This document shows, piece by piece, positions 4,122 to 24,539 of a stretch of 64,000 bases of DNA (position 1 is the stretch's first letter; each line of letters begins with the position of its first letter). Made by a program: the position numbers and the translations under genes. Under the pieces are notes generated by a model, which was not told where the DNA came from, made no database searches, and saw only the letters and a program-made list of their open reading frames with translations. The stretch comes from Parcubacteria bacterium C7867-001 (GTDB lineage: Bacteria > Patescibacteriota > Minisyncoccia > Phycocordibacterales > Phycocordibacteraceae). The DNA is taken from assembly GCA_001189095.1 (NCBI GenBank), contig LFCK01000002.1, positions 214,320 through 278,319 on the forward strand. The letters are read 5' to 3'.

Positions 4122-4223
4122 AGACATTCATGAATGTATAAACGAGTGTCTTAACCAAAAGTTAAGGCGAGTACGGCTATAGTGCATGTGGTCGAACCTC
4201 GTTATCAGCACGCTAACTGATAC

Positions 4224-4412: not shown

Positions 4413-4473
4413 CCCTCGACGTGCTCAATGAGTACCCTCCATAAGAAAAGCGTCGGCCAAAAGGCCGACGCTT

Positions 4474-5139
4474 CTATATAGTGGGGAACCATTGCGAGAC
4501 GACTTTCGTCCCGCCCGGCTCAAGCGCGACGAACCCGTTCGGGTTCGCCGTGAAGTGAGTCGAGGGCATGGAATATTCGTACCAGAAACTGATAACGACG
4601 CTCCACACTCCGGGGGGATACACGCTCGATTGGTGCTCATCGTAGTCGTCGTCAGACGACGTGATGCGACTCAGTCGCGCAGAAGAAGTCATCTTGAACT
4701 CTGTCTTGATGCCGTTCACTTCCCACGATGTGAGTCGTCGGATCTGAGACGTGTCAACGTCATAGATGCCGAACTCTTCGCCGATACCTCGTATGAGGGC
4801 TCGCATCGGTTTCTCGACTTTCCGCTTGCGATTCCGGTTGCGTTTGGGTGTCTCACTCAAGCCCCATGGCTTTACCTTCTCAATGGACGTACCGCTGGGG
4901 AGAATACGACGTACTTCCCGAAGCGTGTGCGTGCAAAGATGGGGCTCCGGCCCGCTCCGAACAATGCTCTTTGCGCTATGCGCAAAACGAGCAAACGTCC
5001 CGTTTACGAGTATCGGTAGCACATCGAGTTCGTTAGTCTCGATGTAAAGATCGTGTAGGCTTTTGTACTCCGGAAGATTGAAGTCTTCCGGTCGTACGCC
5101 GCCCCTTCCAAGGAGGGCGAGTAATTTTTCATACTTCAT
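4474..5139 (-). CDS. hypothetical protein
   Basis: 221-aa ORF downstream of, and co-oriented with, the hybrid histidine kinase; no recognisable domain; contains the basic stretch KRNRNRKRK. Confidence 0.45.
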   Translation of the reverse strand: MKYEKLLALLGRGGVRPEDFNLPEYKSLHDLYIETNELDVLPILVNGTFARFAHSAKSIVRSGPEPHLCTHTLREVRRILPSGTSIEKVKPWGLSETPKRNRNRKRKVEKPMRALIRGIGEEFGIYDVDTSQIRRLTSWEVNGIKTEFKMTSSARLSRITSSDDDYDEHQSSVYPPGVWSVVISFWYEYSMPSTHFTANPNGFVALEPGGTKVVSQWFPTI

Positions 5140-5200
5140 CCTCGCCTCCGTGGATTCGTATTCTGCCTAGAGCCTACCTGTTGGGACTGCATTCTGCAAT

Positions 5201-7210
5201 CTAGAGACCCGGCACCACGCGGGTAAGCTCTGCGAGGCCGATGGGTTTGACGAGGTACTCGTCGAACCCTGCCGCCTCGGCGCGGGTCCGTGTTTCCTCG
5301 AGACTGTAGCCGGTGAGCGCAATGAGTTTGCCATCAAACCCGAGTGCGCGGAGGTCGTGCGCAACGTCAAAGCCATCGCGGCCCGGAAGGCCGATATCGA
5401 GCAGTATCGTATCGGGGCGGTTGTTCTGCACAGACTCGACGGCTTGATCGCCGTCATACGCGTACGAAACGGAAGCGCCACGCAGCTCGAGAAGTTTTCC
5501 GATGCCCCATGATGCTGCGTCGTTATCGTCAACAACGAGAACGCGCGGTCCCGAACCCTGCTTTTCGCGTGGGTGCAGCACGTTCGGTTTTTGAGGGAGG
5601 ATCTCTTTCGATGCGCGATTCTGTTTCGAGCGGGGAAGTCGGACGACGAAGGTGCTGCCAGCATCCTTGCCAGCGCTCTCCGCACGAACGCTTCCGCCAT
5701 GCATTTCGACCAAACTCCGAACGAGTGCGAGTCCGATGCCAAGGCCTTTGTTGGCTTTGCTGCCAGTTTCTGCTTGGCGGAATGGCTCGAAGATGTACGC
5801 GAGCGTGTCAGGCGCGATGCCGATGCCATTGTCTTGTACGCGTAGTTCGACGTCGTTTCCCTTCTCTCCGATCGAGATAGTGATGCGGTCGCCTGCGTTT
5901 GAGTAGCGGGATGCGTTCGTAAGGAGGTTGCTCACTATTTGTTCGATACGAGTGGAATCGCCGTCGACAAGTAGGGTGTCGGAGGGTGCCTGTATGAAGA
6001 GTTGCTGGTGCCGTTCCTTGAATGAGTGATCGGTCGAAAGTGCTGCTTTGCGAACGACCTGTTCAACGTCCACAACCTCTCGTTGGAGCGAAAGTTTTCC
6101 TTCAGAAATGCGGGATACGTCCAGAAGGTCGTCGAGCAAGCGCTTCACCACGTGCATGCGGTCGTCCATGATCGTGAGTGCTTCGGTGTCCTCTGCATCA
6201 AAGCCTCCTTTCGCCTTCAGGTATTCGATCGAGGCGACTACTGGCGCAAGTGGGTTGCGTAGTTCATGTGCGAGCACGGCGATAAAGTCGTTTTTCGCTC
6301 GCGACTCCACCGAGATGCGTGATACGGCATTCTCAAGGTTTGCGACCTGCAGCCGAAGAAGATTCGAGGTGACCCGGCGACTTTCCTCAAGCGATGAGAA
6401 GGACAGGAACAGCAGCCCGACGATGATGAGGAACAGCTCCGTTTGGTAGAGGCGATCACCAAAGAGTTCCGGCGCGGGCACGTGCGGTCCCACAAGAAGG
6501 CTCGCGACTGCGAACACCGAAGTCACGATAAGTGCGAGAGTGATGAATCGTGGTCGCAGCCGCAGTGCAATCCAGAAGAGTGGAATGAGCATGAAGTAGA
6601 CGAATGAAATTCCGGCGATCGTCGGTATGTTCGTAAAGAAGAGGAAATATTCAATGGTGCCGAGCAGGAGAAACGCCGCAGCGGTTTCAAGGAGTTCAAG
6701 CCAACGGCGTGCGAATCGGGGCTTTACCCACCAGCGCATAACAAACGGCGTTACCACGAACACGGTAAATATGGTCGCCACGTACCACGGCCCCCAGCCG
6801 ATCGAGATGCGCGCAGGGAATCCGAGGGCGTCGCTCGCAAAATGCGCGAATGTTCCGGCGGTGGGGATGATAAGCGAAGAGGCCAGTGCGGCGATGAACA
6901 GAATGAATACATCTCGCCAGCTTCGGAACAACGGGTCGATGTTCTGCGAGCGCAGTATGTATGCGCCCGCTACCGCGAACAGTGCGTGAGCAAGCGGCAT
7001 GACGAGGAGCGAAATCGGTGAGGCGCCTGCGATGAGTCCATTCGTGAGAGAGGCGAAGTACACGATCGGCCAGAACGCGAGGCCCTCAAGCGCGAGAATG
7101 CCTATGGCTATGCCGGTGGCAGGGAAGATGACTGCCGGTGGCGGAACGAGCGAAGATACGCGCGCGAGGATCAGAAAGGCAAGGAAGAGCGTGCAGGACA
7201 CGAAAAACAC
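5201..7210 (-). CDS. hybrid sensor histidine kinase/response regulator (MASE1-like membrane sensor, HisKA, HATPase_c, REC)
   Basis: 669 aa; about 8 N-terminal TM helices; H-box AVLAHELRNPLAPV; G-box DNGIGI...GLGIGL; C-terminal receiver VLVVDDN...LLDIGLPGRDG...KPI. Confidence 0.85.
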   Translation of the reverse strand: MFFVSCTLFLAFLILARVSSLVPPPAVIFPATGIAIGILALEGLAFWPIVYFASLTNGLIAGASPISLLVMPLAHALFAVAGAYILRSQNIDPLFRSWRDVFILFIAALASSLIIPTAGTFAHFASDALGFPARISIGWGPWYVATIFTVFVVTPFVMRWWVKPRFARRWLELLETAAAFLLLGTIEYFLFFTNIPTIAGISFVYFMLIPLFWIALRLRPRFITLALIVTSVFAVASLLVGPHVPAPELFGDRLYQTELFLIIVGLLFLSFSSLEESRRVTSNLLRLQVANLENAVSRISVESRAKNDFIAVLAHELRNPLAPVVASIEYLKAKGGFDAEDTEALTIMDDRMHVVKRLLDDLLDVSRISEGKLSLQREVVDVEQVVRKAALSTDHSFKERHQQLFIQAPSDTLLVDGDSTRIEQIVSNLLTNASRYSNAGDRITISIGEKGNDVELRVQDNGIGIAPDTLAYIFEPFRQAETGSKANKGLGIGLALVRSLVEMHGGSVRAESAGKDAGSTFVVRLPRSKQNRASKEILPQKPNVLHPREKQGSGPRVLVVDDNDAASWGIGKLLELRGASVSYAYDGDQAVESVQNNRPDTILLDIGLPGRDGFDVAHDLRALGFDGKLIALTGYSLEETRTRAEAAGFDEYLVKPIGLAELTRVVPGL

Positions 7211-7308
7211 CCGTTTTTTGAAGAGCGGGCTCCGAAAGAGGAGCGGGTAGGTTGGCGCTGCTATACGTTATAGATGATACCAAAAAGGGATATGAAGAAC
7301 GGATGAGC

Positions 7309-7347
7309 TTACAGAAACGCCGGAAGCGAAGCTTCCGGCGTTTCTGT
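7309..7347 (-). terminator. intrinsic terminator (bidirectional hairpin)
   Basis: cagaaacgccggaagcgaagcttccggcgtttctg directly downstream of the 7358-7825 minus-strand gene. Confidence 0.5.
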
Positions 7348-7357
7348 AAGCGATTTC

Positions 7358-7825
7358 TTAGCTGTAGATCGGGCGATACTCTTCATCATCACGCGAACGG
7401 CGGGTCAACGCCCAGATTCCGATGCCGACGAGCGCGAGGAGGAACAGCGCGCCAGCAACGAAGCTTGGTGTTAAGACGTCCATAAACGAGACAGATGCTT
7501 CAGTCGCAGGCGCTGGAGCCGGTGCGGCTGATGGTTCCACTACAGGAGTTGTCACGCTTCCGTCGACTGGTGCGGAGACGCCAGAGTTTGGTATGAGGGC
7601 CGAGCCGTCACTCGTCACTGCGACGGGAGATGGTTGCGTTCCGGCTTCGCTCATAAGTTGTCCTCCAGCGCCGGTTGCGAGTCCCTGACGATACTGGTAG
7701 CCCGTATCGAATCCGGTCACCATTGCGGACGCGGGAAGCGCAAGCAGAAGACTCGCCGCGAATACCGCACCGAGTGCGCCGAGGACGGCGCCACTCACGA
7801 AGAATGTTCCAGTTGAGTTGTGCAT
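7358..7825 (-). CDS. secreted Pro/Ala/Ser-rich protein with C-terminal membrane anchor
   Basis: N-terminal signal peptide; low-complexity PAPAPA region; C-terminal hydrophobic helix followed by RRSRDDEE (sorting-signal-like tail without LPXTG). Confidence 0.5.
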   Translation of the reverse strand: MHNSTGTFFVSGAVLGALGAVFAASLLLALPASAMVTGFDTGYQYRQGLATGAGGQLMSEAGTQPSPVAVTSDGSALIPNSGVSAPVDGSVTTPVVEPSAAPAPAPATEASVSFMDVLTPSFVAGALFLLALVGIGIWALTRRSRDDEEYRPIYS

Positions 7826-8115
7826 AGAAAGTTGTGTTATCCGATAAGAGGGACGCGCTTCCTTCCTGGGGAGAAGGGGAGCGGACGTTCCTGCTAAGGA
7901 GCATGCGCTACAGGCCCTGAAGCCGCAGTGAAAAACTCATGAGCCCCAGATGAACGAAACAGAGCAAGAGTTTGACTTTTTATCAAAAATATGTTATCCA
8001 CACTGACAGTGCTTGCGCCGCCGAGTACTTAGTGTATATTTAACACTAGATTGTGCAGCGGCACAGGAGTTCCTTGAAAGGACCCATACCCATCTAACAA
8101 AGGAAGGTGTCTCTG

Positions 8116-8940
8116 ATGGAGGCTCTACCATTCGTGGTCGCTGGGGGCTCTGTCCCTGGAACTGACCACACCAAGCCTGGGCAACCCGGCTGGATCAACA
8201 ACCAAGATGCGTTCGCCTGGATGAAGACCGATAACGTGCTGGTAGCTGTGGTCTGCGACGGGTGCGGCAGTATGCCGCACAGCGACGTGGGCGCGCAGCT
8301 TATGGCACCGCTTATCGCAAAGCATTTGGCCGTAGTGTCGGAAGACCTGCAGCCTAAAGATGCATTCACTATGCTCGAACGCTGGGTGTATCCATTTATG
8401 GAACACACTGCGCGCGCCATAGGTGTCGACGTTCAAAAAACCATTAACGAGTATTTCTTGTTCACGGTGCTCGGCGTTCTCATAACTCCTAAGCACACGG
8501 TGATCTTCGAAGCGGGGGATGGTGTCTATGCCGTGAATGGCGAGACAACCGTCATACCACCCTATCCCGATAACGCGCCGCCCTACTTAGGACATCGCTT
8601 TACGGGAGGGTGGCCTCGCAACCAAATTGGTATTCGTATCCGCGAACAGCGCAAAACAGAAGAGATCACCTCAATTCTGCTTGGCACTGATGGCGTCACT
8701 GACGTCATTCGCGCGCGCGACAAACCATTTCCCGGACGTAAAGAAGGACCGGTTTTCGGACCGCTCTCTCAGTTCTGGGAAGACGAGCTCTTCGTCGCTA
8801 ACTCCGACATGATTCGTCGGGGTCTCGCGCGTGCGAATCGTGAAGCTGTGGAAGATGGACTGATCAAGAAGGGATTGCTCTCGGACGACACTACTATTGT
8901 TGTTGTTCGTCGGCAGTCAGAAGGAGGCGGTAATGCCTAA
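8116..8940 (+). CDS. PP2C-family Ser/Thr protein phosphatase
   Basis: VAVVCDGCGS, GTDGVTDV and DDTTIVVV metal-binding motifs; ATG 8116 lies 9 nt after AAGGAAGG; stop overlaps the kinase start. Confidence 0.8.
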   Translation: MEALPFVVAGGSVPGTDHTKPGQPGWINNQDAFAWMKTDNVLVAVVCDGCGSMPHSDVGAQLMAPLIAKHLAVVSEDLQPKDAFTMLERWVYPFMEHTARAIGVDVQKTINEYFLFTVLGVLITPKHTVIFEAGDGVYAVNGETTVIPPYPDNAPPYLGHRFTGGWPRNQIGIRIREQRKTEEITSILLGTDGVTDVIRARDKPFPGRKEGPVFGPLSQFWEDELFVANSDMIRRGLARANREAVEDGLIKKGLLSDDTTIVVVRRQSEGGGNA

Positions 8941-10798
8941 CTACACACTCGGCGGAAAGAAGCTGATGCTTCGTCCGAACGATGCGGTGGGGAAAGGAGG
9001 AGAGGCCGACGTCTTCATTGAGGACGGACGTGCTATCAAAATCTACAAGCCACCGAACCATCCAGATCTTGCGGGCGATGCAGCGGCGCAAGCTGCTGCA
9101 AAAGACCGCATCAATGAGCACCAACGGAAGCTTCCCGCGTTCCCGCGCGGACTTCCGGGACACGTCATCGTTCCCGAAGCGCTGGTACTCGACGTTCAGG
9201 GACGTATCGCTGGATACGCAATGAAGCCTCTCATCGGGGCGGAAGTGCTGTATCGCTACGGCGAACGTTCCTTTCGCGAAGCAGGTGCTTCTGACGAAAC
9301 AGCTGTGGCGGTGCTTGCTGACCTCCGGCAAACGGTGGAAGGCGTGCATCGCGCGAATGTCGTTGTCGGAGACTTCAACGATCTTAACGTTCTTGCGAAG
9401 GGCCGCGAGGCTTTTCTCATCGACGCTGACAGCATGCAATTCGGACCGTTCTATACGCATGTGTTCACGACTCGTTTCGTGGATCCGCTCGTGTGCGATC
9501 CGAGAGCGAAGGCGCTCATCATGAAAGAGCCGCACAATCGGAATTCTGATTGGTACGCCTACGCCATCATGCTGATGCAATGTCTCTTGTATGTCGGGCC
9601 GTATGGCGGTGTGTATGCACCCAAAGACCCGGCCAAGCGACTGCCGCACGATTTGCGACCACTGCGGCGAGTTACGGTGTTCGACCCTGAGGTCAAATAT
9701 CCGAAACCCGCTCGACACTTCCGTATCCTTCCTGACGATTTGCTCAATCACTTCGAGCAGACGTTTGTGAAAGATAAGCGCGGAGCCCCGGATGCGCGTC
9801 TCGTTGAGAACCTTCGGTTCACGACGTGCGCGAAATGCGGGACGACTCACGCACGGGCAGTGTGCCCGTCGTGCGTGCATGTGACGCCACCAATGCAGAA
9901 AGAGATTCACAAAGGAGCCATTTCGGCTTTCAAAGAATTCTCAACTGCTGGCGTTATCCTGCATGCGACACTTGAACACGACACGCTCCGCCTCGTTTAT
10001 CACGAAGCGGGGAAGTATCTGCGGGAAGGCGGGAACGAGTTTGCCCAAGGCACACTCGACCCACATTTCCGCTACCGCGTAAGCGGCGAAAAGACGCTCA
10101 TGGGCCGCGGCAATCACGCTATCGTCTTTGATGGCGACCGCCGCGACCAACTTGTGGTCGATGCCTACGGATTATTGCCACTGTTTGACGCGAATGCGAA
10201 GAATACGTTCTTCGTACGCGACGGCGGATTGTGGCGAATTGGAACGCTCGGGGCTGAATATCCCGACCGTTTCGGCGATGTCCTTCCGGGCCAGACACTG
10301 TTCTGGTGCGGAGACACGCACGGGTTTGGTTTGTATCGCGCGGGGGAGCTTACACGCTACTTCGTATTCGGTACGGGCCAGCCTGGCATCAATGATTCAA
10401 TCAAGCTTCCTCCCATTCGGGGGAAGCTCGTCGACGCACTCTGTGTGTTCGGCGAGGATCGGTTGTGGTTTTTTGTTTCGACCGCGAATAACGGTCGGAC
10501 GGAAAATCACTGCTATGTCCTTGATTATCGCGGCACGCTTCTTGCGGAGACTCAAGCTGAGGCCGGAGACGGCAGCTGGCTTGGGACGCTCCGCGGAAAA
10601 TGTGCCGCAAAGGGATTCCTACTCTCATCTACGGATGATGGTGTCGTGCGGATTGAATCCGCAAACGGCACCGTTAGCGTGGTGAAGGAATTCCCGGCTA
10701 CAGCGGAATTCGTCGACGCTGAAACGAAATTGCTCTTGGGAAACCGAGGGCTCTATGCGGTCCAGCGTGGCGATGTTTGGAGGTTGGTCCTCAAATAG
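8933..10798 (+). CDS. atypical Ser/Thr protein kinase with Zn-ribbon and beta-rich C-terminal domain
   Basis: Gly-loop GKGGEADVF; AIKIYK lysine; catalytic HRANVVVGDFNDLNVL; LIDADS (DFG-like); CAKCG...CPSC zinc ribbon; roughly 300-aa repeat-like C-terminus; AAGGAGG RBS; 8-nt overlap with PP2C. Confidence 0.75.
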   Translation: MPNYTLGGKKLMLRPNDAVGKGGEADVFIEDGRAIKIYKPPNHPDLAGDAAAQAAAKDRINEHQRKLPAFPRGLPGHVIVPEALVLDVQGRIAGYAMKPLIGAEVLYRYGERSFREAGASDETAVAVLADLRQTVEGVHRANVVVGDFNDLNVLAKGREAFLIDADSMQFGPFYTHVFTTRFVDPLVCDPRAKALIMKEPHNRNSDWYAYAIMLMQCLLYVGPYGGVYAPKDPAKRLPHDLRPLRRVTVFDPEVKYPKPARHFRILPDDLLNHFEQTFVKDKRGAPDARLVENLRFTTCAKCGTTHARAVCPSCVHVTPPMQKEIHKGAISAFKEFSTAGVILHATLEHDTLRLVYHEAGKYLREGGNEFAQGTLDPHFRYRVSGEKTLMGRGNHAIVFDGDRRDQLVVDAYGLLPLFDANAKNTFFVRDGGLWRIGTLGAEYPDRFGDVLPGQTLFWCGDTHGFGLYRAGELTRYFVFGTGQPGINDSIKLPPIRGKLVDALCVFGEDRLWFFVSTANNGRTENHCYVLDYRGTLLAETQAEAGDGSWLGTLRGKCAAKGFLLSSTDDGVVRIESANGTVSVVKEFPATAEFVDAETKLLLGNRGLYAVQRGDVWRLVLK

Positions 10799-10827
10799 GT
10801 TGAGGACAAAAACAAAGGAGAAGTACC

Positions 10828-11913
10828 ATGGCTCAGATAGCCACAGCACTACCGGTTCCAAAGCTCTTCAATGCGAAGAACGCCGGGGTGTGGTCGTACC
10901 GACCTGACCAGCGCGCGGTGTTCAACACCGCGAACGACTGGAAAAGGCAATACCAACTCAAGGCGTCGGGACTCGATGTCTTGAAGGTCATGCTCCTGCT
11001 GATCGACCTGCAGAAGGATTTCTGCTTTCCGGAAGGTTCGCTCTTCGTGGGCGGCCGTTCGGGACGTGGAGCTATCGATGACTCGGCGCGCATCGCTGAG
11101 TTCATCTACCGGAACCTGAATATGCTAACGAGCATCGCAACGACGCTCGATACGCACTTCGCGTACCAGTGCTTCTTCCCGTCGTTCTGGAACGATGAGA
11201 GCGGTCAGCCGCTCCAACCGTTCGACGTCATCATGGGAAATCTCGACATCATGCGCGCCGGCGTGTGCGTGGGGAAGGCTTCGGTCAACCCCTCCGCAGC
11301 CAGCGTCGTCGCTCATGGCGACTACGTCACGCTGCAAAAGCAGATGGCGTACTACTGTCAGGAGCTCGACAAGGGCGGCAAGTACAACCTGATTATTTGG
11401 CCCGAGCATTGCTTGCTCGGATCCGACGGTCACGTTCTTGCCGGCGTCATTCACGAAGCTCGTCTCTTCCACGCCTATGCGCGTGCGTCGCAATCGCTTT
11501 CGGAAATTAAGGGCGGAAGCCCGTACTCCGAGAACTATTCGGTGCTTCGTCCAGAAGTGATGACCACGTTCGACGGACAACCGTTACCGGGTGTCCAGAA
11601 GAACGTGAAGTTCATCAAGACGCTGCTCGCGTACGACCGCGTCATTATCGCGGGTCAGGCAGGCAGTCACTGCCTCAAGAGCTCGACCGAGGACTTCCTC
11701 GAAGAGATCTTGATTCAGGACAAGTCGCTCGCCCGGAAGGTCTATGTGCTTGCGGACTGCACGTCCGCGGTTACGGTTCCTGATGGCAGCGGCGGATTCA
11801 TCGTCGACAACACGCCGAACATGGAAGCTGCGTTCGCGCAGTTTGCCAATGCCGGCATGAACATCGTGAAGTCCACCACTCCGATTCAGGACTGGCCGGG
11901 CTTTATGCACTAA
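10828..11913 (+). CDS. isochorismatase-family cysteine hydrolase, nicotinamidase (PncA)-like with large insertion
   Basis: IDLQKDF (catalytic Asp); TLDTHF; WPEHCLLGSDGH (matches PncA WPPHCVSGTPG); KGG...YSENYS; AGQAGSHCL (catalytic Cys); AAGGAG RBS. Confidence 0.75.
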   Translation: MAQIATALPVPKLFNAKNAGVWSYRPDQRAVFNTANDWKRQYQLKASGLDVLKVMLLLIDLQKDFCFPEGSLFVGGRSGRGAIDDSARIAEFIYRNLNMLTSIATTLDTHFAYQCFFPSFWNDESGQPLQPFDVIMGNLDIMRAGVCVGKASVNPSAASVVAHGDYVTLQKQMAYYCQELDKGGKYNLIIWPEHCLLGSDGHVLAGVIHEARLFHAYARASQSLSEIKGGSPYSENYSVLRPEVMTTFDGQPLPGVQKNVKFIKTLLAYDRVIIAGQAGSHCLKSSTEDFLEEILIQDKSLARKVYVLADCTSAVTVPDGSGGFIVDNTPNMEAAFAQFANAGMNIVKSTTPIQDWPGFMH

Positions 11914-11979
11914 GACGGGTTTACTCGCATGGCGGAATGGTTCCGTCATGCGAGCGCCCACTCGCAAGGAGGACTCACC

Positions 11980-12819
11980 ATGAGTTCAGCTGACGTAAGT
12001 GCACTCTTTAGTGCAGCGCATCAAGACGGCACACTCTCGAAAGGAGCGCTCGCCGTTCTCGATGCTGAAGATCTCGGCGCCGTGATCAATCAAGGTCTCG
12101 GAATCACTCCGGACCAAGTATCCGCGACCGATATTCAGCTCATTATCGGGAATATCGACGACTCGAGTTCAATCGCGTCGTGCGGCAACGAGCAGCCGAT
12201 GCGGGACGGATACAATCTTGTCTACGACTCGCTGCTCGGAACCAAGCAAAAGGGCGGCATCCTGATGGCGGCCAATCTCTTCAATCGAGGCCTTTTACAC
12301 GGCTTCGATACATTGGAGAACGCTGTTCGTCTCGACGCACGCAACTACAATCCTTCGGGCGGTACGCCGCTCTATGATTCGACGGCGGTTGTCCTTGGGC
12401 TTGCCGCTGCCAAACGGCAGCAGTTCAGCGACAACGGCGTCCCGGCTCGTGCGATCGTTCCGATTTACACGGACGGCGCCGATGTCGGCTCGCGCATGCG
12501 TGCATCCGATATCGAAATCATCGTTCGCGACCTTCTCCAGACGGAGCAGTTCATCGTGATCGGCGTCGGCATCGATGACAGCACGAAGGACCACCAAGGA
12601 AACGTGATCCGCAAGGGTACCGATTTCAAGGCGGTCTTCCAGAGCATGGGCATCCAGGATCGCTGGATCCTGACGCCAGGCAACTCGCCGAGCGAGATTC
12701 GTGGCGCGTTCGCCATGGTGTCTCAATCGGTGTCGCTTGCCAGTCAGAACGCTGGCTCTTTCAGCAAAGGCGTGAAGGGCGGCTTCAGCCAAGGTGCGAT
12801 GGGTGGGTTCGGAGCGTAA
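11980..12819 (+). CDS. vWA-domain (TerY-like) protein
   Basis: MIDAS residues NIDDSSSIAS (DxSxS), GGTPLYDS and IYTDGAD; Gly-rich C-terminal tail; AAGGAGG RBS 7 nt upstream of ATG 11980. Confidence 0.65.
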   Translation: MSSADVSALFSAAHQDGTLSKGALAVLDAEDLGAVINQGLGITPDQVSATDIQLIIGNIDDSSSIASCGNEQPMRDGYNLVYDSLLGTKQKGGILMAANLFNRGLLHGFDTLENAVRLDARNYNPSGGTPLYDSTAVVLGLAAAKRQQFSDNGVPARAIVPIYTDGADVGSRMRASDIEIIVRDLLQTEQFIVIGVGIDDSTKDHQGNVIRKGTDFKAVFQSMGIQDRWILTPGNSPSEIRGAFAMVSQSVSLASQNAGSFSKGVKGGFSQGAMGGFGA

Positions 12820-12964
12820 GCTCTAGAACTCAGGGTCCAGTTCTTTACGTACGGGTGCGAAGGAGGCAGTGCCTCCTTCGCTACTCGCTTCGAGATTCCT
12901 TCGGGAATCTCCTTTATAGGGTGTTTGAGCACACGCTCGAACGTCCTAAAAGGAAAACAGTTCT

Positions 12965-13930
12965 TTGGAGAAGAATATGGTTTCAATTCTCGATTGCTAC
13001 AAAGGCTCGCTCGTCGGCGTGTTGTGCGGCGACGCCCTTGGCGCGCCGTACGAAACATGGACTGAAGATCGCATTCTTGCGGATATTAACAGTCGAGGAG
13101 GACTTGTCCTCTTCGACTACGACGATCCGTGGGGCAAGGACGGCCGGTTTCCGGCAGGTCGGCCCACCGACGATTCGGAAATGACCGCTGCGCTCGCCGA
13201 GTACCTCGTACACGGCGGCGGTCCGGAAAAGCTCTATGCGCTCTTCCGGAAATGCGTTATCGACAAGAAAAGCTTTCTCTGCGACCTTCCGGCCTATGGT
13301 TTCGGTGGCACGACGCGTAACGCGCTCGCGCAGCCTACCTATCTAGAAGCGCTTGCGAATCCCGATCCGAACGATCCGATTCCGAGTAACGGCAGTCTGA
13401 TGCGAGCGGCGCCGATCGCGCTCCTCGTACGCGGCCAGCCAGTTCTCGTGCGTGAACTTGCCGAAATGCAAGCGCTCATGACACATCGGCATCCGGAAGC
13501 TATCGCTGCGACCGTTGCGTACTCGCTCATCTTGGATCATGTCCTCGATGGCTTCACGTACAAAACGGCTGTGAAGAAAACACTCGAACTCATTCCGCTT
13601 AACGACGGCTACGAGCGCATTGCGAAAGTGCTGCTCCGAGGAAAACCGAAGAAGCCGCAACCGCCGACCCATAAATTTCGTGGCGGCGCGGTGTACTCGC
13701 TTCGTGTCGTCCACTGGGCGGTGTCGACGAGCTCCTCCTTTGAGGAGGGAATCTTCAAAGCAGTTACTATTGGTGGCGACACCGATACGTATGCTGCAAT
13801 TGCGGGCGGAATGCTCGGCGCCATGTACGGCGTCCATGCGATTCCGGAAAAATGGAGCTCAGGACTTCTGGGCCGCGCGCGTATGTGCGAGCTTGCAGCA
13901 AAACTCTGTGAGCTGAACGTTCGAAGGTAG
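12965..13930 (+). CDS. ADP-ribosylglycohydrolase family protein (DraG/ARH-like)
   Basis: GDALGAPYE, TDDSEM, GSLMRAAP and GGDTDTYAAIAGGMLGA di-metal site motifs. Confidence 0.85.
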   Translation: MEKNMVSILDCYKGSLVGVLCGDALGAPYETWTEDRILADINSRGGLVLFDYDDPWGKDGRFPAGRPTDDSEMTAALAEYLVHGGGPEKLYALFRKCVIDKKSFLCDLPAYGFGGTTRNALAQPTYLEALANPDPNDPIPSNGSLMRAAPIALLVRGQPVLVRELAEMQALMTHRHPEAIAATVAYSLILDHVLDGFTYKTAVKKTLELIPLNDGYERIAKVLLRGKPKKPQPPTHKFRGGAVYSLRVVHWAVSTSSSFEEGIFKAVTIGGDTDTYAAIAGGMLGAMYGVHAIPEKWSSGLLGRARMCELAAKLCELNVRR

Positions 13931-14086
13931 CGTAAGGAAAGGGTGCCGCGCTTCGCGCGGCACCCCAACCTACTGAGAAATTGAAACCATCTTTTATGGA
14001 GCGCCTGAATTTAGGTTCAGACGTTCCTAGAAGATTTGTTCTTTGAGAATTCGAACATCAAAGAGTCTCAAGAAAAGGAGAAAGCA

Positions 14087-15937
14087 ATGACAAATCTCAC
14101 GGGACGGGTGGTTATCGCCCAAATGAATCCTGAACCTGCGAATATTCGCGCGAATCTTCACTGGATCCTCTTCTTCATCGAAGAGGCGAAGGCGAAGGGC
14201 GCGGACCTCGTCATTTTCCCTGAACTCGCGGTGTCGGGGTACCTCCTCGGCGATCGTTGGGAAAATGACGCGTTCATTCGCGAGCTTGAACGAGCAAATG
14301 AGCACATTCGGATGGCGAGCAAAGACATTGCCGTTATCTGGGGCTCTGTGAAGGCCGACTGGGAAAAAATCGGTGAAGACGGCCGCGTACGCAAGTACAA
14401 CGCTGCGTTTGTCGCGCAGAACGGCGAATGGGTTTCCAACAGCGTTTTGCGCGGCTGGATCCCAAAAACCAATCTGCCGAAGTACCGTATCTTCGACGAT
14501 GCGCGTCACTTCTATCCCGCAGCGAATCTCGCGCGCGACATGGACCTCGACCTCTCGTACCTCCTCCAACCGTTCTTCCTCATGCTCGGGGATGACCCGA
14601 CGCGTGTCGGTCTGACGGTCTGCGAGGACCTCTGGGAAGACGAGTACTCAACGAAACCATCACGCATTTACGGCGCGCACGGCGTCGATCTCTTGATCGA
14701 CATCTCATGTTCGCCGTGGACCGCGGACAAGTGGCGTGCGCGCGAGCGCATGTTGCGGAGTCGCGTCATGGACTCGGGCGTACCGATCATCTACGTGAAT
14801 TCGTTCGGTCTTCAGAACAACGGCAAGAACCTTGTCTGGTTCGACGGCGACTCTGCCATCATCGATCAGAGCGGGAACTTCGTGTGGCGTGCGCCGCAGC
14901 ACAAGGGCTGCATCATGCCGCTCGATCTCAGTAGGCTCAACGAGCCGCTCCCTGAACGCAAGTCGATGGGCATCAAGGAAATCCACGATGCCATCATCGC
15001 TTCCGTGCGCGAGTTCTTCGCGCCGTTCAAGAAGGTCGTCATCGGCCTTTCAGGCGGTATCGATTCGGCGGTTTCCGCAGCACTCATCGCGCGCGCCATC
15101 GGCTCGCACATGGTACTCGCAGTCAACATGCCGACCGAGTTCAACTCGGCAACGACGAAGAATCTCGCGCAGCAATGCGCGGAGAATCTCAAGGTTGAGT
15201 ACAAGGTCGTGCCGATTCAAGGGCTCTATGAAGTGCATCTTGCGATGCTCGCAAGCGCGGGCGTCAAGAATCCCTCGACGCTCGTGAAGGAGAATATCCA
15301 AGCGAGAATCCGTGGCGGTTCCGTGCAAGCTGCGCTCGCGGCGGCGCATAATGGCGTCTTCGTGTGTAACGGCAATAAGACTGAGATGGCGCTCAACTAC
15401 TTCACCCTCTACGGTGATGGTGCGGGCGCCGCAGCCTTCCTCGCCGACCTTTGGAAAGGGCAGGTGTACGAGCTCGCTCGCTACCTGAACGAAACTGAAG
15501 GTCGCGAGCTGATTCCGGAAGGAATCATGACCATCGTCCCATCTGCAGAACTTTCTGCGGATCAGGCAGTCGACGAAGGGAAGGGGGATCCTATCTTCTT
15601 CCCATACCACGACAAGCTCCTGCGCGCCTTCACCGAATGGCGCTGGGATCCGACGACGGTTATGATTGCTGCGCTCGAAGGCACGCTCGAAGGAGAGCTT
15701 GGCTGCGAGCCAGGAACGATTACGAAGTACTTCAAGACTCCGAAAGAGTTTGTGGAGAATCTCGAATGGGCGTGGCGTCAGTACAGCATGGAGTACAAAC
15801 GCGTGCAGACGCCGCCGGTGCTGCTTACCTCGCGTCGAGCTTTCGGGTTCGACCGCCGCGACACCATTGCGGACGGGTACCTCACCGAGGAGTTCTTCTC
15901 CTACAAGGATTTGCTCCTCGACCGTGAACTCGCCTGA
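14087..15937 (+). CDS. nadE: glutamine-dependent NAD+ synthetase (CN-hydrolase + NAD synthetase domains)
   Basis: N-terminal nitrilase-like domain (FPELAVSGY); C-terminal PP-loop SGGIDSAVSAAL; AAAGGAG RBS. Confidence 0.9.
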   Translation: MTNLTGRVVIAQMNPEPANIRANLHWILFFIEEAKAKGADLVIFPELAVSGYLLGDRWENDAFIRELERANEHIRMASKDIAVIWGSVKADWEKIGEDGRVRKYNAAFVAQNGEWVSNSVLRGWIPKTNLPKYRIFDDARHFYPAANLARDMDLDLSYLLQPFFLMLGDDPTRVGLTVCEDLWEDEYSTKPSRIYGAHGVDLLIDISCSPWTADKWRARERMLRSRVMDSGVPIIYVNSFGLQNNGKNLVWFDGDSAIIDQSGNFVWRAPQHKGCIMPLDLSRLNEPLPERKSMGIKEIHDAIIASVREFFAPFKKVVIGLSGGIDSAVSAALIARAIGSHMVLAVNMPTEFNSATTKNLAQQCAENLKVEYKVVPIQGLYEVHLAMLASAGVKNPSTLVKENIQARIRGGSVQAALAAAHNGVFVCNGNKTEMALNYFTLYGDGAGAAAFLADLWKGQVYELARYLNETEGRELIPEGIMTIVPSAELSADQAVDEGKGDPIFFPYHDKLLRAFTEWRWDPTTVMIAALEGTLEGELGCEPGTITKYFKTPKEFVENLEWAWRQYSMEYKRVQTPPVLLTSRRAFGFDRRDTIADGYLTEEFFSYKDLLLDRELA

Positions 15938-16085
15938 TGTTCGACTCCGTGAGGAAGCGCGAAGCGCTTCCTCACGGGTCCTTTTCCAAAGGAAAAGGAT
16001 TTCGTATGGGGCGCCGAAACGAATTGTTTCGACGTCGCTACGGAAAAAAGTTCTTTGCAACCAACAACAGAGAAAGGGCATACCT

Positions 16086-17444
16086 ATGGCTCAACTCGTC
16101 GACGATTGCATTAGGCAATCGGAGGGTGGCGACTGGATCATCCAGTCTTTGCTCGACACCGACTTCTACAAGTTCACGATGGACTATTTCATTCATACGC
16201 TCCATCGTGGCGTGGAGGTCGAGTTCGGCCTCATCAATCGCAATCCGCGCATTCCGCTCGCCAAGATCATTGACGAGAGGGAACTGCGCCGGCAACTCGA
16301 TCATGTGATGACGCTTTCGCTCAGCGAAGATGAACTCGCGTTCATTCGCCGGCAGAACGTCTTCAGCAAACAGGCCTCCACTGAGAAATACATGGAGTTC
16401 CTGAAGCAGCTGCGTCTTACGACGTACACGCTCAAGCGTGTCGGCGACCAATACGAACTTCGGTTCAAGGCGCCGTGGGAAACGGTTACGTTCTGGGAAA
16501 TCGCCTCAATGGCGATCATCTCCGAACTTCTGTACATCGCGCTTATGCGCTCGATGACAAAAGCGGATCGGGTCCTGTTCTTCGATAACGCCGTGCGTCG
16601 TCTCCAAACGATGCTCGAGCAAATCAAGACGCGTCCTTGGGTACAGATGGCTGAATTCGGCACCCGCCGCAGATTCAGTCGCTCATGGCACAACGTCGCG
16701 ATAGAGATGTTCGCCGAAACACTCGGCACGCAGCTCATCGGCACCAGCAATGCGCTCTTGGTGCTCAACCATAATTTGCAACCGGTTGGGACCAACGCGC
16801 ACGAACTTCCGATGGTGCTTACTGCTATCGCGCCGACGGATGAAGAAAAACGCATGGCGCAGTACAGCGTGCTGCGCCAGTGGGAGCCGCTCTTCGACGA
16901 GAAACTGCGCATCACGCTTCCCGATACGTACGGAAGCGAGCAGTTCTGGAAAAATATGCCGGAAGATCTTGCGTTCCGTGTCGCTCATAACTGGAGCGGC
17001 CAACGACAGGACTCCGGCGATCCGGTCGACGAAGGGCTTCGCTATATCAACTGGCTGAAGAGCCAAGGGGTTAACGCGAAGAAAGCCCACAAGAAGGACA
17101 TGTCTTCGGACGGTCTCAATGTGCCGCTGATGTTCAAAATCAACGACGCGCTGCGTGACTTGATCGACGATCTGTACGGAATGGGTACGCACGCCTCGAA
17201 TATCGAGGGGTGCCATCCTGATCCGAATCAGCGCGCTGTTGTGAACGGCGTCGCACTTGACCTTACGAACGACGAGCTCTTCAGGGGCCACTCGATCGTA
17301 TGCAAGGTGATGTCCGCGAACGGGCAGCCGGCGGTGAAGCTCTCGAACAACGTCAACAAGGCCACCGGCCCCAAGGACGAAGTCGAGAAATACCTCCGAC
17401 TCTTCGGGCATGCCGGCATGGTCAAACAAGCCGTGCTCGTCTGA
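16086..17444 (+). CDS. pncB: nicotinate phosphoribosyltransferase family protein
   Basis: LLDTDFYKFTM signature; about 450 aa; the longer upstream in-frame extension (from 15666) overlaps nadE and was rejected. Confidence 0.8.
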   Translation: MAQLVDDCIRQSEGGDWIIQSLLDTDFYKFTMDYFIHTLHRGVEVEFGLINRNPRIPLAKIIDERELRRQLDHVMTLSLSEDELAFIRRQNVFSKQASTEKYMEFLKQLRLTTYTLKRVGDQYELRFKAPWETVTFWEIASMAIISELLYIALMRSMTKADRVLFFDNAVRRLQTMLEQIKTRPWVQMAEFGTRRRFSRSWHNVAIEMFAETLGTQLIGTSNALLVLNHNLQPVGTNAHELPMVLTAIAPTDEEKRMAQYSVLRQWEPLFDEKLRITLPDTYGSEQFWKNMPEDLAFRVAHNWSGQRQDSGDPVDEGLRYINWLKSQGVNAKKAHKKDMSSDGLNVPLMFKINDALRDLIDDLYGMGTHASNIEGCHPDPNQRAVVNGVALDLTNDELFRGHSIVCKVMSANGQPAVKLSNNVNKATGPKDEVEKYLRLFGHAGMVKQAVLV

Positions 17445-17454
17445 AGACGCTCTC

Positions 17455-17502
17455 TGTAAAAAATGATCCCCCGAGCCAAAGGCTCGGGGGATTTTCTTTT
17501 TG
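17455..17502 (+). terminator. bidirectional intrinsic terminator
   Basis: aaaaaatgatcccccgagcc-aaa-ggctcgggggattttctttttg between convergent pncB and nadM. Confidence 0.65.
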
Positions 17503-17514
17503 TTTCGGAGCTAA

Positions 17515-18402
17515 TCAGCTTCCGAGAAGCATAGCCGCAAGCGGGCGATGCCACGGCACCAACCGTTCGATGAGGTCGTGTCGGTGCACCCACTCGATCG
17601 CATCTGCGTCATCGCCGCCAACGGGGTCTCCGTTGAGGTAATTCGCGCGGAAGAATCGGGTGGTGATGCCGTCAGGAGTGTCGCGATAGCGTGGGTCCTC
17701 GATCGGCTTCGAACCAACGTACGTCGGCTTCGTGATCACGATACCGAGGATCTCCTCCGTACGTTCCCGCATCGCCGTCTCCTCATCAGATTCCCCGACG
17801 TCGCCGAACCCGCCCATGAAGGAACAGAGTCCCTCGTGGCGTTTCTTCTTGATCAGAAGGAACTCGGCGTTTCTGCGCACAATCGCGAGGTCGGCGGTTC
17901 CGTACGGAATCGGATAGCGAGTTTGGGTCGCCCAGATGAGCGCTTCGCGCCCGTCGGTCGTTGTTGGCATCGTCACGCGCGAGCGTATCTCGGTCCCACT
18001 GATGTGGGGCAAGGACGCCGGAATAACATGCCGCATCAGCGTACCCGAATACACATTCAGGAAGCTGTCGCGACCGCCGTACAGTACGACGTGCGCGGTG
18101 TCTCCACCGCACAAGTTTGTGACAAGCGTATCAAGGTCGCGCGACCAGTAGGTCGGCGAAAGTGGGTGGTCGATGATTTCTTCCACCTGCGCCTCGGGAT
18201 ACACTTCGAGCACCATGTGCTTGCGTACCTCATAGGGAAGGGGGTTCTTCATCGTCGGCAAGCCGCCTGAAGAAGCGAGCAGGATGAGCAGATGCTCATG
18301 CCGATCGCGTGCATACTCGATGATTCTTCGGTGTTCTGGGTGGAGGTAGGGCACTTGGAAGCGCCCGACCACAACCCCGACCGATTTCGGTCTCGTATCC
18401 AT
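17515..18402 (-). CDS. nadM: bifunctional NMN adenylyltransferase / Nudix (ADP-ribose) hydrolase, NadM-Nudix-like
   Basis: N-terminal GVVVGRFQVPYLHPEH (nucleotidyltransferase GRFQP.H motif); C-terminal Nudix box GGFGDVGESDEETAMRERTEEILG. Confidence 0.75.
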   Translation of the reverse strand: MDTRPKSVGVVVGRFQVPYLHPEHRRIIEYARDRHEHLLILLASSGGLPTMKNPLPYEVRKHMVLEVYPEAQVEEIIDHPLSPTYWSRDLDTLVTNLCGGDTAHVVLYGGRDSFLNVYSGTLMRHVIPASLPHISGTEIRSRVTMPTTTDGREALIWATQTRYPIPYGTADLAIVRRNAEFLLIKKKRHEGLCSFMGGFGDVGESDEETAMRERTEEILGIVITKPTYVGSKPIEDPRYRDTPDGITTRFFRANYLNGDPVGGDDADAIEWVHRHDLIERLVPWHRPLAAMLLGS

Positions 18403-18482
18403 TGGCTATTCTCCAAAGAGCTCGGCGCCGTAGGGCGCCGCAAGCTGCAGAAAGTATACTACACAATTAAATAAGCGTCAAA

Positions 18483-18935
18483 TTATGCTCGGAGCATCGA
18501 AAGCGCTTCCTCGAGCGTGTCCACCTGCGTGATTCCATATCGTTCGCAAACGATATCGATATTTCCTTTACGCCAAAATCCTTTCGGGCAAATCATAATG
18601 AGTTTTCCGGACTCCTTTCCGAAGAGACCGAGCTCGATCATGGAAACAGGGGATTTGGTTGTTGGGTCGAGATACATGAGTATTTTCTCCGCGCGTTCGA
18701 GTCCCTCAAGTTCCCATTCCACCTGCTCGCGGAACGGGGCATTTTCCTTTTCCTGTACCCACGAGTTGTCCCAGTCATCGCGACGAGGATTGAGGATTAT
18801 CCAGTCCGTATCGGCGAGGGCGTCTTGTACCTTCTTCTGCCACTCCTCAGCCGCACCCATCTCGATGCTTCCAGCTAAGAAGAGTAGTTTCTCTGCATCG
18901 ACGGGAACCGGCTGCGGTGGCTGATAGATCTGCAT
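18483..18935 (-). CDS. nucleoside 2-deoxyribosyltransferase-like / LOG-like (SLOG fold) protein
   Basis: About 150 aa; LFLAGSIEMG, ILNPRRDDW and IELGLFGKESGKLIMICPKG resemble the Nuc_deoxyrib_tr-like family; start ATG at 18935 directly abuts the nrtR stop. Confidence 0.5.
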   Translation of the reverse strand: MQIYQPPQPVPVDAEKLLFLAGSIEMGAAEEWQKKVQDALADTDWIILNPRRDDWDNSWVQEKENAPFREQVEWELEGLERAEKILMYLDPTTKSPVSMIELGLFGKESGKLIMICPKGFWRKGNIDIVCERYGITQVDTLEEALSMLRA

Positions 18936-18936
18936 G

Positions 18937-19644
18937 CTAAATGACTTCAATATCGCGCACGGTTTTTGATGCGAACTTATAGAGTTGTGCAGGACGGAAT
19001 TTGCCGCCAGTGCGCTTCTTCGCAAGCTCCTTCAAGATGCCAATCTTGAGGATTTTCTTGCGGAAATTACGCTTGTCGAGATCTTTTCCAATAATGGATT
19101 CATATGCCTTCTCGAGCTCGGTGAGCGTAAACTCAGCGGGAAGGAGTTTTTGTATGAGTGTAGTGTAGCGAACGCGTGAGCGAAGGCGGGTTAGGGCGGT
19201 TTCAAGCATGTCGGTATGGTCATATGCGAGCGTGCCCGCTTTCTCAACAGTCTTCCACCATGAATCTTCACCGTCTTTGCGCTCCGCATCGCTAAGCGAC
19301 TCCCAAGGCACGAAAGCGATGTGCGCGACAGATACGACGCGCCCGCGCTTGTCGCGATTAAGTGCACTAAAGGTGTAGAGCTGCTCGAGGTGGAGCTTTG
19401 CAGGATCGATACCGGTCTTATCCTTTATATGTCGAGCGGCTGCCTCTTCAGCTGTCTCAAGAGGGGAGAGGAGTCCACCAGGAAGCGCGATGGCGTTCAC
19501 GTAGTGTGGCGGGCGATTTACGCGGATGACGCGCACAAGGAGCTCACCCTCCTTAAGGGTGAAGAGTGCAATATCGGTAGCAACGACGGCGAAATGTAGC
19601 TTCGGGGCATCAGTCATACGGTAAGGATACCGCAGGAAGGACAT
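18937..19644 (-). CDS. nrtR: NrtR-family regulator (Nudix domain + C-terminal winged helix)
   Basis: Degenerate Nudix box GGLLSPLETAEEAAARHIKDKTG followed by a basic wHTH-like C-terminus (DKRNFRKKILKIGILKE); lies in a NAD-metabolism cluster. Confidence 0.65.
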   Translation of the reverse strand: MSFLRYPYRMTDAPKLHFAVVATDIALFTLKEGELLVRVIRVNRPPHYVNAIALPGGLLSPLETAEEAAARHIKDKTGIDPAKLHLEQLYTFSALNRDKRGRVVSVAHIAFVPWESLSDAERKDGEDSWWKTVEKAGTLAYDHTDMLETALTRLRSRVRYTTLIQKLLPAEFTLTELEKAYESIIGKDLDKRNFRKKILKIGILKELAKKRTGGKFRPAQLYKFASKTVRDIEVI

Positions 19645-19714: not shown

Positions 19715-19788
19715 GCTGGTGTAGCTCAGGTAGTTAGAGCATGGGACTCATAAACCCAAGGTCGAAGGTGCAAGTCCTTCCACCAGCA
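19715..19788 (+). tRNA. tRNA-Met (CAT) elongator type (could also be tRNA-Ile2, lysidine-modified CAT)
   Basis: GCTGGTG...CACCAGC acceptor; anticodon loop ACTCATAA; T-loop GGTCGAAGG; CCA not encoded. Confidence 0.8.
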
Positions 19789-19936
19789 CATGTAGTCGCG
19801 TAAGCGACGTAGTGGCATGGTGGAAGGACTTGCAGGTCGCAGGCGCGTCGGCGCCGAGACGGGGTCGCGGAAATTTTCAGCAGAAAATTATCCGTGACCA
19901 AAGCCTCACCAGCACATGTAGTCGCGTAAGCGACGT
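19781..19936 (+). repeat. 30-bp perfect direct repeat (caccagcacatgtagtcgcgtaagcgacgt) at 19781-19810 and 19907-19936, flanking 96 bp
   Basis: First copy spans the 3' acceptor end of the tRNA; the spacer carries an inverted 16-nt copy of the tRNA T-arm (ggtggaaggacttgca); each copy contains a small GTAA-loop hairpin. Confidence 0.7.
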
Positions 19937-20365: not shown

Positions 20366-20439
20366 GCGGTCGTAGCTCAACTGGTTAGAGCACTCGCCTG
20401 TCACGCGAGAGGTTGCGGGTTCAAGTCCCGTCGACCGCG
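20366..20439 (+). tRNA. tRNA-Asp (GTC)
   Basis: GCGGTCG/CGACCGC acceptor; anticodon loop CTGTCAC; T-loop GGTTCAAGTCC. Confidence 0.85.
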
Positions 20440-20444
20440 CAAGA

Positions 20445-24463: not shown

Positions 24464-24539
24464 GCCGTTGTAGCTCAGTTGGTAGAGCACTTCCATGGTA
24501 AGGAAGAGGTCATCGGTTCGATCCCGATCAACGGCTCCA
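24464..24539 (+). tRNA. tRNA-Thr (GGT)
   Basis: GCCGTTG/CAACGGC acceptor; anticodon loop ATGGTAA; T-loop GGTTCGATCCC; CCA encoded. Confidence 0.85.

Follow-up and report, generated by a model that had tools for sequence, protein, structure and literature searches.

A long nicotinamidase gene within a TerY-P-like phosphatase, kinase and vWA cassette: a candidate phospho-switched operon of the NrtR regulon

Why should the gene of a nicotinamidase stand between a Ser/Thr kinase gene and the gene of a von Willebrand factor A (vWA) protein, in the midst of a set of genes that resembles the TerY-P signalling triad? The question is posed by a 64-kb stretch of DNA from Parcubacteria bacterium C7867-001, a bacterium of the candidate phyla radiation (CPR). 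The whole stretch (contig LFCK01000002.1, positions 214,320 to 278,319) is called the window in the following, and its positions are counted from its first nucleotide. Positions 8116-12819 of the window hold a cassette of four genes that encode a PP2C-type phosphatase, a kinase, a PncA-like nicotinamidase of a long form and a vWA protein. An earlier interpretation, made from the nucleotide sequence and its open reading frames (ORFs) and referred to here as the sequence-only reading, had taken the cassette for a TerY-P-like triad interrupted by a nicotinamidase and linked to NAD salvage, and had named as the alternative that two unrelated modules simply adjoin. On balance, we consider it probable that pp2c-stk-long pncA-vwa (8013-12912) is a single conserved operon of the NrtR regulon, inducible by ADP-ribose, that functions as a phospho-switched unit for the regulated salvage of nicotinamide.

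Gene order of the cassette

The four genes are tightly packed on the forward strand. The gene of the PP2C-type Ser/Thr phosphatase (8116-8940; 274 residues) overlaps by 8 nt the gene of the YegI-like Ser/Thr protein kinase (8933-10798; 621 residues), the ATG of which, at position 8933, is preceded by the ribosome-binding site GAAGGAGG. The kinase gene ends at 10798 and is followed after 29 nt by the ATG, at 10828, of the gene of the long-form nicotinamidase (10828-11913; 361 residues), a PncA-like cysteine hydrolase, with AAGGAG in front of the start codon. A spacer of 66 nt separates the end of pncA at 11913 from the ATG at 11980 of the vWA gene (11980-12819; 279 residues), which is preceded by AAGGAGG. 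The tight operon described in the sequence-only reading was recovered in all of its details, that is, in the coordinates, the overlap, the spacings and the ribosome-binding sites.

The comparison of gene neighbourhoods was based on a kinase-profile scan of one genome per GTDB species, which yielded 393 confirmed loci. The best 80 of these were analysed; they comprise 36 loci of CPR/Patescibacteria, 13 of Cyanobacteria, 8 of Gammaproteobacteria, 6 of Myxococcota, 3 of Acidobacteriota, 2 of Planctomycetota, six singleton groups and 6 unclassified loci. Their six-frame ORFs were searched with ten proteins of the window, and the denominators given for these loci refer to those with enough flanking DNA. 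The long nicotinamidase is encoded immediately 3' of the kinase in 70 of 77 loci, and both the nicotinamidase and the vWA protein follow the kinase in 62 of 68. A PP2C gene lies immediately 5' of the kinase gene in 70 of 74 loci. The gene order of the cassette recurs in approximately 90% of the 80 loci, in more than ten phyla, which bears out the proposal that the PncA-like gene is conserved between the kinase gene and the vWA gene, and the gaps between the cassette genes amount to tens of nucleotides. Look-ups that were begun from nicotinamidase homologs, in Haliangium and Myxococcales genomes, led to the same four genes in both cases. The mean pairwise divergence of the cassette proteins across phyla is only 46-60%, a range that denotes strong conservation.

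Properties of the four proteins

Among the cassette proteins of the window, Pfam recognised only the phosphatase (PP2C_2, 2.7e-19); the kinase, the nicotinamidase and the vWA protein were without a match. Searches of PADLOC, NCBIfam and PDB sequences yielded nothing significant for these three proteins, the PDB matches being at the level of motifs. Of the families to which the sequence-only reading had assigned the proteins, Pfam supported PP2C and, among the neighbours, ADP_ribosyl_GH, NAD_synthase, NAPRTase and NUDIX, whereas the kinase, Isochorismatase and VWA models were not matched by the window proteins. The assignments of the latter are derived from profile alignments with hhalign, from AlphaFold models compared by Foldseek, from conserved residues and, for the nicotinamidase, from the NCBI name.

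The family profile of the kinase aligned with E. coli YegI over 300 columns (hhalign probability 98%, E 2e-13), including the CxxC...CPxC region of a four-cysteine zinc ribbon. YegI has been identified by experiment as a Ser/Thr kinase (bioRxiv 10.1101/819920). The AlphaFold model of the window protein (pLDDT, the predicted local distance difference test, 88.9) displays an N-terminal protein-kinase fold followed by a C-terminal beta-propeller. In Foldseek, the first half of the model was matched by IRAK4, CaMKII, PknG and Aurora, the second half by beta-propellers such as those of acylaminoacyl-peptidase and the clathrin N-terminal domain. Residue conservation was derived from two alignments, one of 26 homologs and then one of 81. 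In at least 97% of the 81 sequences, the Gly-rich loop GKGGEAD (G20-x-G22-G23) with K36, the catalytic loop D147-x4-N152, D164/D166 at the DFG position and D206-W207 of subdomain IX are retained; the zinc-ribbon residues C299, C302, C311 and C314 are invariant or kept at the same level. The motifs GDFNDLN and IDADS are atypical of Hanks-type kinases, and the Pfam Pkinase model is not matched, yet all Hanks-type hallmark residues are present. A small-molecule kinase was deemed unlikely in view of the homology to YegI, the best fold matches, which are protein kinases, and the D-W motif of subdomain IX.

The phosphatase resembles PphC of E. coli (BLASTP E 2e-7), and its metal-binding residues D48, D135, D192, D257 and D258 are kept in at least 97% of 71 homologs. 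With a kinase homologous to YegI and a phosphatase homologous to PphC, the label TerY-P-like chosen in the sequence-only reading is a fair one. The AlphaFold model of the vWA protein (pLDDT 89.8) was matched by Foldseek to integrin I-domains, vWF-A domains and PTMP1 with a probability of 1.0. The residues of its metal ion-dependent adhesion site (MIDAS), DxSxS (60-64), T129 and D165, are invariant among the homologs, and the Ser-rich, disordered C-terminal tail still conserves S248, S250, S255 and the terminal GGF. Kinship with YegL is weak (hhalign 27%), though the MIDAS motifs align.

The nicotinamidase contains the catalytic triad D60, K228 and C282 and the metal ligands D108, H110 and H194, all of which are kept in at least 97% of 74 homologs; the three metal ligands are invariant, and H194 is part of the motif WPEHC. 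In the nicotinamidase family, the metal site binds a pyridine nitrogen that is free, an argument for nicotinamide itself being the substrate of the long PncA. An NCBI entry 100% identical to the window protein bears the name nicotinamidase, and some homologs of the long form have precomputed matches to PF00857, marked as faint where their strength is given. The window protein itself does not match PF00857 and scores 22.9 bits against NCBIfam PRK11609, the cut-off of which is 174. In an alignment with the classical PncA of M. tuberculosis (PDB 3pl1), both the Asp-Lys-Cys triad and the Asp/His/His metal site correspond, with D60 at D8, C282 at C138 and the Lys column slightly offset. Compared with the classical enzyme, the long form has about 170 additional residues, distributed over an N-terminal extension (about 50 residues in the window protein), an insertion of about 80 residues between the metal ligands and a C-terminal insertion; it also remains below the Pfam threshold and is accompanied by the triad partners in 70 of 77 sampled loci. 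In seven loci (L013, 11899-13641; L028, L043, L045, L051, L056 and L083), the nicotinamidase carries at its N-terminus a fused domain of about 230 residues (GLCGRIIRGKKPEDF...HLRELFSGDGYTYTADG...), and in three loci this domain is encoded by a separate gene of the cassette (L094, 4038-4763; L028, 14830-15612; L043, 14741-15430). The domain does not occur in the window and had no match in Pfam or PDB.

Taken over all four proteins, the catalytic or ligand residues are at least 97% conserved across 67-81 homologs, and each of the four appears capable of catalysis or of ligand binding.

Operator, transcript and genomic setting

A motif search upstream of the PP2C gene revealed an NrtR-type operator, the 21-bp palindrome TTAGTGTATATTTAACACTAG with a GT-N7-AC core, at 8029-8049. 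The operator and the -10 hexamer of a candidate sigma-70 promoter, TTGCGC-16 nt-TATATT (8013-8040, + strand), overlap; the promoter was recognised by reading the sequence and was missed by a consensus scan; in loci L002 and L003, better hexamers (TTGACA or TTGACG, 16 nt, TATACT) occupy the same register. The 21-bp palindrome upstream of PP2C has the form TTAGTGTA-N5-TACACTAA. With up to three mismatches allowed, 8029-8049 is its sole match in the 64 kb of the window, where 0.04 would be expected. Of 82 loci, 35 have the exact core TAGTGT-N7-ACACTA, in most cases directly 5' of PP2C, and a box with three or fewer mismatches is located within 450 nt 5' of PP2C in 52 of 73 loci, corresponding to an approximately 55-fold enrichment. 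The remaining 1.3 Mb of locus DNA contains 35 such boxes, several of them 5' of nrtR. The cross-phylum gene order, the recovery of the cassette from the PncA side and the operator in 52 of 73 loci uphold the proposal that the nicotinamidase is embedded in the triad and is not a mere neighbour of it.

The window operator shares its geometry with the published NrtR motif, likewise a 21-bp palindrome with a GT-N7-AC core (PMC2330246). As in the regulons described by Rodionov et al. (2008, PMC2330246), the palindrome lies over the promoter, the regulator is a Nudix protein with a winged helix-turn-helix domain and the targets include pncA, pncB, nadE and nadM. In those regulons, by contrast, pncA occurs alone or as pncA-pncB, never as the long form within a four-gene operon led by phosphatase and kinase genes. 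ADP-ribose frees NrtR from its sites in vitro (PMC2330246), and by analogy with this known behaviour the cassette operon would be induced by ADP-ribose.

Genes of NAD salvage surround the cassette. On the same strand are those of an ADP-ribosylglycohydrolase (ARH; 12977-13930, +; Pfam ADP_ribosyl_GH 5.2e-57), the glutamine-dependent NAD synthetase NadE (14087-15937, +; Pfam NAD_synthase and CN_hydrolase, NCBIfam PRK13981 2.4e-103) and the nicotinate phosphoribosyltransferase PncB (16086-17444, +; Pfam NAPRTase and NAPRTase_N, NCBIfam 5e-100). The opposite strand encodes a NadM-like nicotinamide mononucleotide adenylyltransferase-Nudix protein (17515-18402, -; Pfam NUDIX and weak matches to NCBIfam NadM-Nudix), a protein of the Nuc_deoxyri_tr2 family (18483-18935, -; Pfam 7.9e-32) and the regulator NrtR, composed of a Nudix domain and a winged helix (18937-19644, -; Pfam NrtR_WHD 7e-25 and NUDIX 2.7e-9). 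The NCBIfam match of NrtR to NF050029 (2.2e-42) scores 145 bits, which is under the equivalog cut-off of 400. Among the 43 loci with full flanks, the nrtR gene was found in 30, pncB in 20, nadE in 12 and the ARH gene in 4. Unsupervised clustering of the other ORFs revealed an adenylyltransferase/NAD-kinase-like protein (17 loci), a Nudix hydrolase (11) and the PRPP synthetase Prs (9). ARH was considered as a core member and, with its 4 of 43 full loci, was rejected as a lineage-specific neighbour. The connection that the sequence-only reading had drawn between the triad with PncA and the NAD cluster thus persists for the NrtR operator and the salvage genes, but ARH falls outside the conserved unit. 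In a Myxococcales locus (L082, 1185-9979), genes of NAPRTase, NAD synthase, NADAR, PP2C, kinase, PncA and vWA are arranged in a same-strand row, with a 61-residue ORF on the opposite strand between the first two; the cassette forms the tail of the row, and an NrtR-like box lies 5' of the NAPRTase gene.

Downstream of the vWA gene, two hairpins are located at 12857-12912 (+), the first at 12857-12881 and the second, conserved in L001, L002 and L004, at about 12893-12912 and followed by CTTTAT. They represent the probable end, or an attenuation point, of the cassette transcript. Terminator-like hairpins are also found 3' of nadE (15946-15978) and of pncB (17465-17493). As hairpins follow vWA, nadE and pncB, the four-gene cassette would constitute a clear transcription unit; read-through from it into the ARH gene, nadE and pncB is possible.

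Between the operator and the PP2C gene lies a leader element, AGTTCCTTGAAA (8068-8079, +), which is conserved in L001-L004, is preceded by a small hairpin and, in our assessment, resembles the boxA of rRNA leaders (TGCTCTTTAACAA). The combination of a hairpin and an (A)GTTCTTTG(R)A leader occurs at 8068-8079, 12959-12970, 14037-14048 and 16049-16060 on the + strand and at about 18409-18421 on the - strand, ahead of the start codons of the PP2C gene, the ARH gene, nadE, pncB and nadM and not ahead of the internal genes pncA and vwa; L001-L004 have the element at the same places. The window contains 17 occurrences of the 12-mer pattern, where 8.6 would be expected; four of the 17 lie within these leaders. 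An Rfam scan of the leader and intergenic regions retrieved no known family. As a general feature of the cassette the boxA-like element was rejected; the strict pattern is present in 5 of 75 loci and hence is lineage-specific. The annotated ATG of nrtR, at 19644, falls within the best promoter-like site of this gene, TTGACA-17-TATCCT (19652-19624, -). Because of this overlap, the true start of nrtR may be Met codon 10 (about 19617), on a leaderless mRNA or one with a very short leader. The NrtR-like box that overlaps this promoter is only a degenerate one, with 5 mismatches of 16.

The cassette is not confined to cellular genomes. It was found on 14 IMG/VR contigs of 42-436 kb (L083-L096), which are classified as viral and some of which also carry nadE or pncB. 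In a 485-kb GenBank entry named 'uncultured phage' (LR745208.1; L097, 204111-224929), the genes are arranged as PncA, vWA, two unknown genes, PP2C and kinase, with a Nuc_deoxyri_tr2 gene about 3 kb downstream. Most of the copies on phage-classified contigs are without an NrtR box. In their flanks, ThyX, a GIY-YIG homing endonuclease and a polynucleotide kinase-like protein are encoded, all three on one flank, beside many ORFs that had no match; such a setting is compatible with a phage origin. Megablast of the window region against phages yielded no match. The kinase had no full-length match among 72,556 plasmids and only three distant partial ones; in view of this near-absence, a plasmid-borne mobile defence element was rejected. 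On the largest of the IMG/VR contigs (L083, 436 kb), a gene for a protein resembling the major vault protein (3465-6086; MVP_shoulder 4e-29, Vault_3) lies about 1 kb 5' of the cassette.

Proposed working, alternatives and related systems

In the model we favour, the consumption of NAD+ would cause ADP-ribose to build up, NrtR would leave the operator over the -10 hexamer and the operon would be transcribed. The long nicotinamidase, as the entry enzyme of the Preiss-Handler route, would convert nicotinamide to nicotinate and thereby feed PncB, NadE and the adenylyltransferase encoded alongside. The three remaining proteins would form a phospho-switch of the TerY-P type, in which the YegI-like kinase acts against the PP2C phosphatase and in which the zinc ribbon and the beta-propeller of the kinase would serve as docking or sensing domains. 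Since all four proteins look competent, kinase and phosphatase may well act on the C-terminal tail of the vWA protein, which is rich in Ser, and/or on the family-specific extensions of the nicotinamidase as their likeliest targets, and so determine their state of phosphorylation. Depending on that state, the MIDAS face of the vWA protein would bind its partner and turn the activity or the assembly of the nicotinamidase on or off. The retention of the full set in the reduced genomes of CPR bacteria and on the mostly box-less contigs of huge phages suggests that the nicotinamidase needs its three partners. Only tentatively would we go further and propose that the long PncA is obligately dependent on them, being active only in a complex with the vWA protein and toggled by the kinase and the phosphatase. 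The whole unit would then be a portable device for the recovery of NAD+, induced through ADP-ribose and NrtR in cells and captured by huge phages as a fourth route, of the Preiss-Handler type, from the nicotinamide released by immune systems with NAD+-cleaving enzymes (NADases).

Several observations weigh against a phospho-switched salvage operon. In a mirror-tree comparison, the correlation between the pairwise distances of the four proteins is no more than moderate (r 0.43-0.68), and 21 of the 73 loci lack the box at the threshold of three mismatches. In locus L063, the PP2C-kinase pair is followed by the gene of an Hsp70-like protein of 533 residues (9135-13567) in place of PncA and vWA, and in L059 and L079 PncA and vWA are missing beside the kinase; all three loci retain an NrtR-like box. 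An Hsp70-family gene, yegD, also adjoins yegI in E. coli (L098, 4675-7986), a feature that TerY-P shares with the L063 variant. Because these three loci contain the PP2C-kinase pair without PncA and vWA, the pair is modular and may have other clients. The window nicotinamidase misses the Pfam Isochorismatase model, and nicotinamide as its substrate is deduced from active-site motifs and database names. The phosphorylation targets, the binding partners and the complex, finally, are those that we infer.

The modularity of the pair could also mean that kinase, phosphatase and vWA protein signal outward, the status of nicotinamide or NAD being read by the nicotinamidase or the propeller and relayed to other targets in the cell. 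Such a relay would suit the large propeller of the kinase and the occurrence of a PP2C-kinase pair with another partner under an NrtR-like box (as in L063, with a box in L059 as well). We nevertheless regard it as very unlikely, since the complete catalytic site of the nicotinamidase and the presence of pncB in 20 of 43 full loci argue for a working salvage enzyme, and the neighbourhoods contain no conserved downstream target gene. The Hsp70-like protein, a chaperone that replaces PncA and vWA in some relatives, points in a different direction, namely that the triad is a device for the maturation or metal loading of the long nicotinamidase. The vWA protein would handle the metal at D108/H110/H194 or chaperone assembly, and cycling between kinase and phosphatase would drive release. 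A function as phospho-switches that sense metal has been proposed for TerY-P triads (Anantharaman 2012, as cited in PMC11090510). The MIDAS and the metal site of PncA are both invariant, and the occurrence of the whole cassette in streamlined CPR genomes and on mostly box-less phage contigs fits an obligate helper. However, classical short nicotinamidases take up their metal unaided, and an AAA+ or chelatase partner, as is typical of vWA-assisted metal insertion, is not present. A loading device is judged unlikely.

The copies on phage-classified contigs raise the question of a conflict system, either an antiphage module of the TerY-P type with the nicotinamidase as effector or a means to recover NAD+ against NADase immunity, used by cells and huge phages alike. 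TerY-P-like modules confer antiphage defence (Gao 2020, as cited in PMC11090510), phages are known to rebuild NAD+ by the pathways NARP1-3, and the cassette resides on the 14 IMG/VR contigs and, rearranged, in LR745208.1. Arguing against this possibility is the absence of any TerY-P match in PADLOC, even at E <=1; the sequence-only reading had proposed to look for such a call. Nor did an antiphage role find support with regard to cells, in which the context is one of NAD metabolism and an NrtR operator rather than of defence islands; among the 72,556 plasmids, as described above, the kinase had no full-length match. Moreover, the proteins share about 50% identity between phyla, an unusual degree of conservation for genes of immunity, and the IMG/VR contigs are viral by classification alone. 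We hold a conflict system to be improbable. That a TerY-P triad and NAD genes without any relation to each other adjoin by chance, the alternative named at the outset, is refuted by the comparative data: with a gene order kept in about 90% of the 80 loci and in more than ten phyla, an operator in front of PP2C and a cassette that is also reached from the PncA side, it is hardly credible.

How the proposed phospho-switched salvage operon relates to known systems can be seen most clearly with TerY-P, which is described in PMC11090510 as a set of vWA protein, PP2C and kinase with a zinc ribbon, found near ter genes, restriction systems and defence genes. The same three domain types as in E. coli yegL-pphC-yegI are found in the cassette: the homology to YegI spans the kinase domain and the zinc ribbon, the phosphatase is related to PphC and the MIDAS aligns with that of YegL. 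Unlike TerY-P, the cassette has the nicotinamidase gene as an integral fourth member between the kinase and vWA genes (70 of 77 loci), and the kinship of its vWA protein with YegL is weak (27%). At its C-terminus the kinase has a soluble beta-propeller, whereas YegI is reported to be a two-pass membrane protein (bioRxiv 10.1101/819920) and an OB-fold is found in the Gao-type version that serves in defence (PMC11090510). The setting is that of an NrtR/NAD regulon, not of ter, restriction or defence genes, and PADLOC makes no TerY-P call. With regard to phages, the cassette of the phage-classified contigs together with nadE, and sometimes pncB, would remake NAD+ from nicotinamide, as the NAD+ reconstitution pathways do by Adps and Namat (NARP1), NadV and NMNAT (NARP2) or PnuC and NadR (NARP3). 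None of these three employs a nicotinamidase or a kinase/phosphatase/vWA set, and a role of the cassette in counter-defence would be hypothetical.

The sequence-only reading knew of no description of a triad interrupted by a nicotinamidase, and a full-text literature search likewise found no paper that joins a bacterial nicotinamidase with PP2C, vWA or TerY. What is new here is that a TerY-P-like triad has a metabolic enzyme of its own within an NrtR regulon, and this suggests that the recycling of vitamin B3 is controlled through phosphorylation in a way not described before. TerY-P-type triads are widespread and their mode of signalling is not known; tied to an easily assayed enzyme, the logic of the triad becomes testable. 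If the proposed operon functions as described, a post-translational layer would be added to bacterial NAD+ salvage, the control of which is known mainly at the level of transcription (NrtR, NiaR, NadR), and a new subfamily of long nicotinamidases would be defined. The clearance of nicotinamide sets the activity of sirtuins and of NAD+-cleaving enzymes, so that a gated nicotinamidase could tune both. CPR bacteria rely on salvage, which makes the cassette relevant to their physiology, and the copies on huge-phage contigs tie it to the contest of phage and host over NAD+. Should the partner-dependent, portable device exist, a TerY-P-type triad would for the first time have an output that is defined and can be measured.

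The rest of the window consists of ordinary chromosomal genes, among them those of a GatA-type amidase, CTP synthase, BipA, an AcrB-type pump and ABC transporters. Six single tRNA genes are distributed over it (2879-2950, 19715-19789, 20366-20440, 24464-24539, 25560-25635 and 32721-32792), two of which encode tRNA-Met; one of these begins 70 nt past the nrtR start codon. Between the gene of a hybrid histidine kinase (5201-7210, -) and an ORF of 155 residues (7358-7825, -), a hairpin with a perfect stem of 20 bp (7307-7351) is probably a terminator; a weak Rfam match of the same segment to a miRNA was taken as chance.

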